Shown here: positions 16,759 to 19,899 of the stretch, in pieces | Position numbering within the stretch: position 1 is the stretch's first letter | Layout of the letters: each line of letters starts with the position of its first letter | From: Candidatus Methanomethylicia archaeon | Lineage (GTDB): Archaea > Thermoproteota > Methanomethylicia > CALHIW01 | Assembly (NCBI GenBank): GCA_038845975.1 | Contig: JAWBQF010000003.1 | Coordinates: forward strand, 32,001 to 96,000 | Reading direction: 5' to 3' | DNA length: 64,000 nt | Position numbers and translations under genes: made by a program | Notes under the pieces: generated by a model | The model's input: only the letters and a program-made list of their open reading frames with translations | Database searches by the model: none | Told to the model about the DNA's origin: nothing

Positions 16759-17391
16759 ATGGTTAGTATAGTAAAGGTTTAGCGATATTGATCGTTGGAG
16801 GAATACTGGTAGATGGTGTTAGTTTATGGTAGGAGGAAGACTGGTAAAGCTTCTTTATAAAGAACTATACGAAATGGGATAAATACTATTTTATTGGTAG
16901 GAGTGGGAATATATTTATTGATGATGAGAAGATAAGTTATGAAGCCTTTACTAGAGAGTTTCTTGATAGGCTTCACAGTATAGGTGTAAATGGAAGATTA
17001 ATAGCAGTAACCTCAACTCTCTGGTTTGCAAGGGAGCTTTTATGGAGGGCTTCACCTCTACCTGGTCTATTCTCGGAGTTTAAGGTAACTCCAATAGATG
17101 AAGGTGATATTCTTGTATTGTAAATATGTATGAATACATTAAGAACCTAAAGCTGCTTCTAGAGTATTCACTGTTTCTTAGGGAGCCTTGACTTATTTAG
17201 ATATGGGATAATGCTAAGGATTTCTTTAAGGCTCTACTGCAAACCATAAGGAATACTGTTCCCTCACTTATAGGTGAAATCTTCATTGAGGAAGAGAGGA
17301 CATATTCGCGAATATATGATACTGTGTTAAAGGCTATTGCTAACGGTAAGCAGATATCAACGGAAATGGCATCTTATCTATACTTGAGGAT
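16759..17391 (+). pseudogene. Archaeal AAA/ATPase_2-type ATP-binding protein, disrupted
   Basis: Fragments LVYGRRKTGK (Walker A), FFIKNYTKWDKYYFIGRSG and LIGEIFIEEER.YS.IY...LKAIA, with frameshifts and stops. Truncated by the IS6 copy at 17392. Confidence 0.75.
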
Positions 17392-18082
17392 GGCTTTGTT
17401 AACTTAAGCATGTTTATCACCTCTATTTTGGTATTGTATCTTCTATGAATTCTTAGCTTTTATCTTCCTTATCCATGTTTCGTTTAGCTATGCTATTGAC
17501 TTCATAAACATTAATGCCTGTTCATTACCGCGTTTATCCTCATGCACGGTATATAATTATCGAATAGCTTAGTTCTATCCTTAACATACTGTATTATTCC
17601 ATCCATTAATTCTAACCTCTAAACTATATCGTGTTTTAATATTCTCATGATGCTTATAGTATTGAGCTCCATCACTTAATACAACTATATTAACCGCAGA
17701 TAGCTCTAATCTTTTAAGGAATGTTAGTGATGTAAGCATGTTGCAACATCGCAAACCCATATGTAGAGAATCCTTCTCAATAATGGCTCAAACACAACAT
17801 AAATAACCTCCTCTTAAAACCTACTTATAATAGATCAACCATAATCCTAGCATCCCTCCCATCGAAATCAAATAGCTTAAGATAAACCACGATAATATAG
17901 ATACATAACCTAAAATAATAAAGCTTAGAATATCTGAAGCCATTCTAGATGAACGGAAATATATAAGTAATAAACAACTAGAGTAAATGAGGGTTCTCTC
18001 CCTACAAACCTAATAACTTTAGATATATCATCACCATAAATAGGGGAGGGAACTTCCAAATAAATCTAAAGTTAACAAAGCC
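17392..18082 (-). mobile_element. IS6-family element, full length with many small indels
   Basis: Both 14-bp TIRs are intact and the body is colinear with 244..974. Confidence 0.88.
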
Positions 18083-18162
18083 AGTATAAGCCACTCAACA
18101 ACTGCATCCCGATCTTCTTAATGTTTTTATAGTGATAAGTTAACAAAGCCAGTATAAGCCAC
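18069..18162. repeat. Exact 26-bp direct repeat separated by a 42-bp unique insert
   Basis: AAGTTAACAAAGCCAGTATAAGCCAC occurs at 18069-18094 and 18137-18162. Confidence 0.92.
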
Positions 18163-18198
18163 GTTAGCTTTAAATATAGGTTTTAAAACTCATGCTGG

Positions 18199-19128
18199 GT
18201 GGTATTGATGATTGATGAAAAATTAATGAGTATGAAGGAAGCAATAGGAAAATATGTTCATGATGGTGATACTGTGTATATGGCTGGATTTACACATTTA
18301 ATCCCCTTTGCGGCAGGCCATGAGATAATTAGGCAGAGGAAACGTAATCTAACATTGGTTAGGCTTACTCCAGATTTAATTCATGACCAAATGATAGCTG
18401 CTGGCTGTGTTAAGAAACTTGTTTTTAGTTGGGCTGGAAATCCTGGAGTTGGGCCTCTACATGCATTTAGAAGAGCTGTTGAGAAGGGTTTTCCGAATCC
18501 TATTGAGATTGAGGAGTATACTCATTTCGCTTTAGTATCACGTATTTTCGCGGGGGCTATTGGTCTTCCATTTATCCCACTTAGATCACTCCGGGGAAGT
18601 GACTTACCGAAACACAATCCAAACATAAAATTTGTAAAGTCTCCATATAGTGATGAGGAGGTAGCTATTGTTCCCCCTCTAAACCCTGATGTATCTATTA
18701 TACATGCTCAAAGAGCTGATGTGGAAGGTAATATTCAGGTATGGGGGTTAATATGTGATATTAGGGAAGCAGCTTTCGCTGCAAAAAGAGTTATTGTAAG
18801 TGTTGAGGAAATAGTTGATGAATACATTATTAGAAGTGATCCGAACAAGGTTATAATACCTAGCTTTATTGTTGATGCAGTTATAGAGGAGCCGTGGGCA
18901 GCTCATCCATCTTACGTACAGGGATATTATGATAGAGATAATGAATTCTATCTTGAATGGGATAAAATATCGAGAGATCCTGAACTACTTGAGAAATACA
19001 TGGATGAATGGATCTATAATATTCAGAACCGTAGGGAATATGTTAGGAAGCTTGGTGCTGAAAAGATAATGAAGCTAAAGCCAAAAAGCTTTTATAGTGT
19101 AACGGTTAACTACGGATTATACTACTAG
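18199..19128 (+). CDS. CoA-transferase subunit A (CatI/GctA-type, 3-oxoadipate/glutaconate)
   Basis: GFTHLIPFAAGHEIIRQ..LTLVRLTPDL..DQ, FSW.GNPGVG and AHPSY.QGYYDRD. Confidence 0.88.
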   Translation: MVLMIDEKLMSMKEAIGKYVHDGDTVYMAGFTHLIPFAAGHEIIRQRKRNLTLVRLTPDLIHDQMIAAGCVKKLVFSWAGNPGVGPLHAFRRAVEKGFPNPIEIEEYTHFALVSRIFAGAIGLPFIPLRSLRGSDLPKHNPNIKFVKSPYSDEEVAIVPPLNPDVSIIHAQRADVEGNIQVWGLICDIREAAFAAKRVIVSVEEIVDEYIIRSDPNKVIIPSFIVDAVIEEPWAAHPSYVQGYYDRDNEFYLEWDKISRDPELLEKYMDEWIYNIQNRREYVRKLGAEKIMKLKPKSFYSVTVNYGLYY

Positions 19129-19899
19129 GTGTATGTAATGGAGTATACAAAGGCAGAACTTATGGTAGTAGCTGCATCGAGAGAACTTCGAGATTATGAT
19201 GTGGTTTTTGTAGGTATTGGATTACCTAATCTCGCTGCAAACCTAGCTAAGAGAACTCATGCTCCACATCTAGTAATGATTTATGAGTCTGGAGTTATAG
19301 GTGCAAACCCTACAAGAGTACCTATCTCCATAGGTGATCCATGCCTGGTTTCCGGTTCTCAAAGTGTATGCTCCATATTTGATGTTTTCGCCTTCTATTT
19401 ACAGTCTGGGAAGATTGATGTAGGATTTCTTGAAGGAGCTCAAGTTGATAAATATGGAAATATAAATACTACAGTAATAGGAGAATATGTAAAGCCGAAA
19501 GTCAGATTACCGGGGAGTGGTGGTGGATGTGATATAGCTTCATTAGCTAAGAGAATCCTAATAATTATGCCTCATGAAGCCAGAAGATTCCCTGAAAAAG
19601 TAGATTTCATTACTAGTCCAGGCTTTCTCAGAGGGAAATGGGAGAGGAAGCAGCTTGGATTGAAGGGTGGAGGACCTGTTAAGGTAATTACAGATCTAGC
19701 AATTCTAGGATTTGATGAAGGGACAGGTGAAATGATACTTGAATCCATACATCCGGGAGTAACAGTAGAGGATGTAAAGAAGAATACTGGTTGGGATCTT
19801 AAAATATCAAGAGATCTAAAAACTACAGAAAATCCTTCAGAAAAAGATCTTCTAATTCTTCGGCGGCTTGATCCTAAAGGAGTATATCTAAGGAAATAA
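19129..19899 (+). CDS. CoA-transferase subunit B (CatJ/GctB-type)
   Basis: FVGIGLP, LVMIYESG (catalytic Glu), AQVDKYGNINTT and RLPGSGG; directly abuts subunit A. Confidence 0.88.
   Translation: MYVMEYTKAELMVVAASRELRDYDVVFVGIGLPNLAANLAKRTHAPHLVMIYESGVIGANPTRVPISIGDPCLVSGSQSVCSIFDVFAFYLQSGKIDVGFLEGAQVDKYGNINTTVIGEYVKPKVRLPGSGGGCDIASLAKRILIIMPHEARRFPEKVDFITSPGFLRGKWERKQLGLKGGGPVKVITDLAILGFDEGTGEMILESIHPGVTVEDVKKNTGWDLKISRDLKTTENPSEKDLLILRRLDPKGVYLRK

Follow-up and report, generated by a model that had tools for sequence, protein, structure and literature searches.

The window analysed here is a stretch of 64,000 nucleotides from a Candidatus Methanomethylicia archaeon (GCA_038845975.1, contig JAWBQF010000003.1, positions 32,001-96,000, also written C3:32001-96000). 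At one end of a decayed IS6-like insertion sequence (IS), upstream of a coenzyme A (CoA)-transferase gene, it contains an exact 26-bp duplication around a 42-bp insert. This unit probably arose when the resident Cas1-Cas2 integrated a spacer at an ectopic position in a single full-site event, which left an inert pseudo-array with a single spacer. The unit has the geometry of a CRISPR repeat-spacer unit, the genome has a resident CRISPR system that matches it, similar units recur in the genome, and the sequence next to each resembles the end of a leader.

The duplication and its insert

The 26-bp duplication was unique to this locus. The 26-mer AAGTTAACAAAGCCAGTATAAGCCAC has exactly two copies in the whole draft genome (2.77 Mb in 76 contigs, GC content 33.7%, 93% complete, rich in repeats). 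These are at window positions 18069-18094 and 18137-18162, 68 bp apart, and the chance expectation for an exact 26-mer repeated at that distance in 2.77 Mb is negligible. The insert between them, called B, is single-copy genome-wide, and a short-word BLAST search of the 42-mer against its own genome gave trivial partial matches and no second copy. The features of the locus are as follows.

17392-18082, minus strand: decayed IS6-like element (a copy of the family called IS-A here), 691 bp, with 14-bp terminal inverted repeats (TIRs) at 17392-17405 and 18069-18082 and without a long open reading frame (ORF)
18069-18094, no strand assigned: pseudo-repeat A1 (duplication copy 1), the 14-bp IS end plus 12 bp of flank; exact repeat family with two genomic copies
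18095-18136, no strand assigned: insert B, candidate spacer; GC 33%, single copy, without internal TIR-like sequence, length inside the resident spacer range of 35-46 bp
18137-18162, no strand assigned: A2 (duplication copy 2), whose IS-end part (18137-18150) is preceded by B and not by IS interior
18163-18178, minus strand: leader-like segment TATATTTAAAGCTAAC, then G, the first base of the duplication; holds the TATA-like box TTTAAATA (18169-18176) of the promoter of the downstream gene
18199-19128, plus strand: ORF of the CoA-transferase family, with a second subunit at 19129-19899 (PF01144, E = 6e-26 and 2.8e-37); context only

The promoter of the CoA-transferase gene is still intact after the insertion.

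These results agree with a preliminary description, made from the letters of the window, that had claimed an exact 26-bp duplication around a unique 42-bp insert. It had also given the makeup of the 26-mer as a 14-bp TIR plus 12 bp of host flank, which fits what we found: the first 14-15 bp are the IS-A end and the sequence past ..GCC varies from one IS copy to another, which marks the next 12 bp as local flank. The 42-mer, which might have been the interior of a TIR-bearing mini-element, is not, and it has no other copy. B is not repeated after A2 and holds no inverted TIR, as a tandem duplication or a miniature TIR element would have.

The unit was bridged in assemblies of public sequencing runs. 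Logan contigs from two runs of two studies (X1 record 8 and X4 record 24, 5507 letters each) are identical to the window over 18057-18600, so A1, B and A2 are spanned in one piece with 38 letters to the left of B. The identical unit, along with 560 bp of this IS relic, is on a metagenome contig of 6193 bp (L007), where the 794 bases compared contain one substitution (window 17809); one source among X1, X4 and L007 may be the window's own. Spanning sequence had been the first check proposed for the unit, and these contigs supply it.

In the X8 and X11 runs, no contig covered B. The alignments of X8 record 32 (3560 letters) and X11 record 15 (114 letters) start only at 18137 and extend to the right; to the left of 18137 the two contigs continue for 12 and 19 further letters, respectively, that do not fit B, and no contig joins across. 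Because 12 letters is also the reach of the X1 contig into the IS before A1, we suspect, as a hint only, that X8 may hold an allele without B and with one copy of A. In the X1 run, the CCC stretch of the insert (window 18107) is one C longer in a contig that has about one third of the local depth, so that sample seems to contain two variants of the insert-bearing allele.

The resident CRISPR system

The length of the duplication was that of the resident CRISPR repeat. Contigs C6 and C27 each begin with an array, of 15 and 50 repeats respectively, and contig C65 ends with a leader and its first repeat. The repeat length of 26 bp follows from position 26, which is G in 15/15 repeats on C6 and G (28/50) or A (22/50) on C27, and from the bases outside, which vary. 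The genuine repeat-spacer units (n = 62, with one 105-bp unit filtered out) measure 61-72 bp with a median of 65 bp (including 18 of 66 bp, three of 68 bp and two of 62 bp), and their spacers measure 35-46 bp. The 68-bp unit of the window is inside this range.

An intact csa1-cas1-cas2 cluster adjoins the C27 array, at C27:9247-11442 (Pfam: Cas1, PF01867, E = 2.9e-58; Cas2, PF09827, E = 1.6e-16; Csa1, PF06023, E = 3.7e-75), and Cas1 has a single match in the genome. The two points on which the preliminary description could have failed here, the presence of cas1 and cas2 and the geometry of the resident arrays, thus both came out in its favor.

Recurrence in the genome

The window unit was one of three of its kind in the genome. 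A whole-genome scan for exact repeats 30-150 bp apart gave 186 matches, 62 of them outside arrays and most in tandem or coding repeats. Only three of those 62 were clean, non-tandem repeat-insert-repeat units of CRISPR-like size:

Window unit, 18069-18162: repeat 26, insert 42; 68-bp unit at an IS-A end
C6 unit, C6:69748: repeat 26, insert 40; at a 34-nt remnant of an IS end whose family (IS-B) is related to IS-A
C20 unit, C20:30623: repeat 28, insert 34, readable as 26/36; at no repeated element

The preliminary description had proposed looking for further such duplications, and two more exist. In the C6 unit, as in the window unit, the duplication joins 14 bp of IS end to 12 bp of flank. The inserts of all three units are single-copy in the genome, with no longer version of any of them there, and they have no common sequence or terminal repeats. 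The C20 insert, at 34 bp, is 1 bp under the observed spacer range and at 36 bp is inside it; reading its duplication as 26 bp avoids a T acceptor and costs one 1-in-16 coincidence.

A looser scan allowing two mismatches per 24 bases (133 segments, 18 after filtering) found no older, diverged units beyond the exact ones, with a bin filter that was imperfect in that it dropped the C6 unit too. A further exact duplication, of 20 bp around an insert of 51 bp, is at C4:29524-29614; it lies 20 bp within an IS-like left end, and its size is outside the CRISPR unit range. Two 26-bp repeats on another contig are imperfect and operator-like, with 41 bp from one start to the next, and do not have the geometry of a CRISPR unit.

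The C20 locus is absent from the one same-genus genome, which is 62% complete. From 41 genomes of relatives no orthologous intergenic region was recovered, and the matches were to CoA-transferase coding sequence only (73-75% identical). A degenerate pattern of two direct IS ends 44-62 bp apart had no match in genome_contigs, a collection that may exclude the own genome. Sampling around the lineage is sparse, with one other genome in the family and 62 in the class among the genomes compared. At 2.77 Mb, the genome exceeds all listed relatives (0.5-2.3 Mb) and is unusually rich in IS relics.

Likeness to a leader on the promoter side

The sequence next to the promoter-side copy of the duplication resembled the end of a CRISPR leader in all three units. 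A TATA-like box lies 4-6 bp past A2 in each. Compared without gaps to the last 16 bases of the genome's own leader, the promoter side (minus strand) matches at 10/16 bases in the window, 11/16 at C6 and 12/16 at C20 (p = 0.011, 0.0026 and 0.0005, against all genome positions, the C20 value being for the 26-bp reading). The IS or upstream side matches at 7/16, 8/16 and 6/16 in the same order (p = 0.21, 0.09 and 0.38).

Because this comparison was made after the sites had been seen, we built an independent profile. The same repeat family occurs in arrays of six other genomes of the class, and nine leader-repeat junctions from these relatives, which share ..TATATAAGCTTTnA|G, made up the whole profile; the own genome contributed none. 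The profile gave the own leader 15.0 bits (p = 6e-6). On the promoter side it gave 3.5 bits for the window, 5.9 for C6 and 6.5 for C20 (p = 0.0025, 0.00095 and 0.00076), with G at +1 in 3/3. In the opposite orientation, p was 0.54 for the window (-19.5 bits), 0.35 for C6 and 0.04-0.46 for C20.

The preliminary description had the AT-rich IS interior standing in as the leader. This part did not hold up: the profile is at chance on that side of the window and C6 units, and it is the promoter side that is leader-like. By these scores, the leader-end mimic is the promoter side and not the IS interior. A gapped likeness of the IS interior to a leader can be seen by eye (..ATAAATCTA| compared with ..ATAAACCTTTA|), but we rejected it, as the ungapped and profile scores are at chance.

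The TATA-like box was kept at the leader end in every related array examined. The leader end ..TATATAAGCTTTnA stands directly before the first repeat (loci L026-L030, L018, L019 and L023, and the own C65:7417-7437), often after a second CTTAAATAGGGG-like box.

The IS6-like element and the excess at IS ends

The element at the unit belonged to a family that duplicates 8 bp of its target. Over its full length, the window copy is 81.5% identical to a copy of 708 bp at another place in the genome. It has only broken ORFs of at most 59 amino acids, and it has no 8-bp target duplication (the flanks 17384-17391 and 18083-18090 differ). The terminal 15-mer of IS-A has 53 exact genomic copies and, with one mismatch allowed, 194 ends (97/97 by end type), of which we could pair 63 copies of about 660-740 bp. 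The target duplications are 8 bp and are perfect in 21/63 paired copies, as had been claimed for this IS family. The window unit is not an ordinary duplication of this IS6 type: its 26-bp repeat includes the IS end and is on one side only.

The longest IS-A ORF anywhere encodes 145 amino acids. It matches the NCBIfam IS6 transposase model NF033587 weakly (E = 2.2e-6, 27.5 bits, with a curated cut-off of 125), and a Pfam search of it gave no match; "IS6-like relic" is a fair name for what looks like a decayed member of that group. There was no intact transposase frame in the 63 paired IS-A and 10 IS-B copies, yet the ends are well kept and target duplications are perfect as often as given above, which suggests that the elements were mobilized in trans or that a master copy is missing from the 93%-complete draft.

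Several other observations concern the surroundings of the relic and its family. Upstream of the relic, window 16848-17391 (plus strand) contains only broken frames (91 and 68 amino acids), the last of which enters the IS end, as if the gene there had been truncated by the element. To the left of the relic, the X8 contig differs from the window by three substitutions at 17289-17293 and by 19 extra letters behind 17384. Within these 19 letters stands, inverted, GTATAAGC, the 8 bases that follow the right IS end, which an older rearrangement mediated by the IS may have left behind. At C11:20863 (minus strand) there is a solitary IS-A end whose interior side is not IS-like and ends ..CACAAACCTTA.

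Promoter-like motifs were common just outside the IS ends. Among the known ends (194 of IS-A and 38 of IS-B), a B recognition element (BRE)/TATA-like motif, AA..TTTA.A, occurs 15-25 nt outside the two IS-A end types in 40/97 and 33/97 cases, compared to 9/97 and 8/97 in a control window; examples in the window are 18083-18110 and the flanks of other IS copies. IS6-like elements thus seem to dock about 18 nt upstream of promoters. Such docking would put an IS end 12 bp from a leader-like junction, so that a 26-bp ruler would reach the inner edge of the 14-bp end.

The units were in large excess at IS ends. Two of the three units start exactly at the inner edge of a 14-bp end, and the ends belong to two related IS families. 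IS ends scoring at least 3.5 bits in register number 21/233, with the C6 site ranking 12th; the window site was left out of this ranking by an interior filter, and with its 3.5 bits would be about 22nd. Genome-wide there are roughly 14,000 leader-like positions (0.00254 of 5.5 million), and relative to these the 21 IS ends are few, so that two of three events at IS ends is a large excess. For a shared motif chosen post hoc, 9/461 sites were IS-adjacent. Either the integrase reads something in the IS end, or IS ends are structurally favored, or retention is biased.

Origin of the inserts

The inserts behaved like genuine spacers. None has another copy in the genome, just as 0/62 genuine spacers have a full match in their own genome, and their GC content of 33-41% is within one standard deviation of that of genuine spacers (40 ± 7%).

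Searches for a source gave nothing. The 42-mer had no exact match in viral_contigs or genome_contigs; with up to three mismatches it was found, among 62 genomes of the class, in the own genome only; and blastn against phages and plasmids gave chance matches only (E of at least 0.7). The C6 and C20 inserts had no exact match in viral_contigs. As a control, about 50 genuine C27 spacers had 0 matches in the phage or plasmid libraries, so these negatives carry little weight.

How the unit may have formed

The proposed integration would run as follows. Before the event, the locus would have consisted of the end of the IS relic (14 bp), 12 bp of flank and then the CoA-transferase promoter. The integrase would take the promoter-side sequence as a leader end (on the minus strand, a TATA-like box, 6 bp and a G). 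The first joint would be made at that G and the second 26 bp away on the opposite strand, at the inner edge of the IS end. With a 42-bp prespacer inserted, gap repair would duplicate the 26 bp. The same process would have taken place at two further places in the genome, each time with a two-copy pseudo-repeat and one spacer as its product, the seed of a "neo-CRISPR". We infer the enzyme, the order of the joints and the foreign origin of the insert.

The preliminary description had likewise proposed ectopic integration by Cas1-Cas2. The geometry, the cas genes, the 26-bp resident repeat and the recurrence all speak for it, and only its choice of the IS interior as the leader is not borne out.

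Several points weigh against integration by Cas1-Cas2. The excess at IS ends could point to an IS-linked process, and IS ends with better leader mimics (up to 14.6 bits) carry no insert. The pseudo-repeats are unlike the real repeat in their letters, with 5-10/26 identities (p = 0.19-0.91) overall and 7-8/26 for the window unit. There are three events only, and the 26-bp reading of the C20 unit was picked post hoc. No protospacer or protospacer-adjacent motif was found for any of the three inserts in the libraries searched, which is weak evidence for the reason given by the control. Systems of this kind are not known to carry out precise 26-bp full-site integration into non-repeat DNA. Finally, specific integration by Sulfolobus solfataricus Cas1-Cas2 in vitro took an unidentified host factor, ATP and a leader of at least 400 bp (PMC5815122).

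The best of the other explanations was an IS- or repair-linked templated insertion, in which aborted transposition or template-switch break repair recopied the IS end and 12 bp of flank, together with filler, and Cas1-Cas2 had no part. We consider this unlikely. In its favor, the inner edge of a 14-bp end marks the start of two of the three units, far above the IS share of leader-like sites, and the elements are very abundant (194 plus 38 ends). However, the family duplicates 8 bp and not 26, the C20 unit is at no repeated element, and the filler has no template in the genome. This explanation also gives no reason for a duplication of exactly the CRISPR repeat length or for inserts in the spacer range, and we know of no IS6 pathway that gives such a product.

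It is less probable still that the units are footprints left by a small mobile element, or an integrase, whose target duplications measure about 26 bp, with the 34-42-bp inserts as the remnant after excision or decay. Such an element would account for exact duplications of one length in three independent units. Their inserts, however, share neither sequence nor terminal repeats, have sizes within the resident spacer distribution and exist in no longer version in the genome, which has no second Cas1 or casposase-like gene.

There is little chance that the unit is a working new CRISPR locus, transcribed and processed to a guide RNA that gives immunity. A promoter-like box adjoins it, and new arrays have been proposed to start from off-target integration (10.1101/148544, PMC6698737). 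However, there is one insert per locus with no growth, and a search of window 17300-18400 found no Rfam match. The unit has two repeat copies sharing 7-8/26 bases with the real repeat, and the resident repeat-cutting enzyme should not recognize so unrelated a pseudo-repeat. Because of this unlikeness, the unit is most likely an inert scar and not a working array.

An assembly artefact or chance repeat, for which a repeat-rich draft of 76 contigs might give grounds, can practically be dismissed, as it is contradicted by contigs that bridge the unit without differences in X1 and X4 and by its presence in L007, by the uniqueness of B, by a duplication (26 bp) shorter than the 31-letter words of the run assemblies, and by the negligible odds of a chance 26-mer repeat.

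Ectopic integration by Cas1-Cas2 allows a broader proposal, which we offer as speculation that is more likely wrong than right by a wide measure. A TATA-like box 6 bp before a G might be the write signal of Cas1-Cas2 in this lineage, perhaps read through a general DNA-bending promoter factor that would do in archaea what IHF does elsewhere. In that case ordinary promoters would be latent integration sites. With IS6-like elements docked about 18 bp upstream of promoters, the IS ends would stand in register as the distal half of a pseudo-repeat, and IS-docked promoters would be hot spots that seed new CRISPR loci in nature.

Relation to known systems

What is known of off-target spacer integration comes mainly from Escherichia coli over-producing Cas1-Cas2, with only a few, circumstantial examples from nature. 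The genome described here, from a wild archaeon, adds three clean events, each of which has a duplication of exactly the repeat length next to a sequence that mimics a leader motif conserved among its relatives. These natural mistakes point to a short candidate determinant (a TATA-like box, 6 bp and a G) by which archaeal integrases that lack IHF may find the leader, with a contribution from the IS end. The events show how new arrays could be seeded, and they indicate that adaptation machinery leaves detectable scars in genomes. For archaea, natural ectopic integration at IS ends or promoters is not described in the literature that we searched, which had limited coverage.

Compared with target duplication by IS6 elements, the unit is similar in that it is at an IS6-like end and its flank includes the former target of the IS. 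It differs from the 8-bp duplications of other copies in this genome in that it is 26 bp, includes the IS end and encloses an insert.

Among the closest known systems is canonical adaptation of type I-A in Sulfolobus. S. solfataricus Cas1 prefers acceptors in the order G > C > A > T (PMC4574026), and S. solfataricus Cas1-Cas2 integrates promiscuously without host factors (PMC5815122). In Sulfolobus islandicus, Cas1 binds a leader-proximal motif from -25 to +7, and Csa3a restrains integration elsewhere (PMC9456107). The features in common are Csa1, Cas1 and Cas2, a G acceptor at +1 and the importance of the leader-proximal region (PMC5815122, PMC4574026, PMC9456107), as well as promiscuity without host factors and a repeat duplicated around a spacer of about 40 bp. 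In contrast, integration here would have been into DNA that is no CRISPR repeat and lacks a long leader, and the adaptation genes identified in this genome are csa1, cas1 and cas2.

Off-target integration by Pyrococcus furiosus Cas1-Cas2 in vitro occurs at sites that share features with the repeat and the leader junction (PMC6698737). There, as here, off-target sites with features of the leader-repeat junction give away which signals the integrase recognizes. The P. furiosus events took place on plasmids in vitro, whereas those described here are fixed in natural genomes, and no likeness to the body of the repeat was detected in them.

A close precedent is the "neo-CRISPR" of E. coli, in which over-production of Cas1-Cas2 led to off-target integration that spawned new arrays (Nivala et al. 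2018, as cited in 10.1101/148544, PMC6698737, PMC7054753 and PMC9456107), with "circumstantial evidence" in two other species, according to 10.1101/148544. Those arrays and our units have in common a repeat-length duplication of non-CRISPR DNA, a spacer-length insert and a site that resembles a leader junction away from arrays. The two other species are reportedly Yersinia pestis and S. islandicus. Our units differ from the E. coli case in that they are natural and come from an uncultured hot-spring archaeon with csa1-cas1-cas2, in which three loci in one genome are affected. They also differ in that the mimic is a promoter-type TATA-like box and not an IHF site, and in that two of the three sites are at IS ends.

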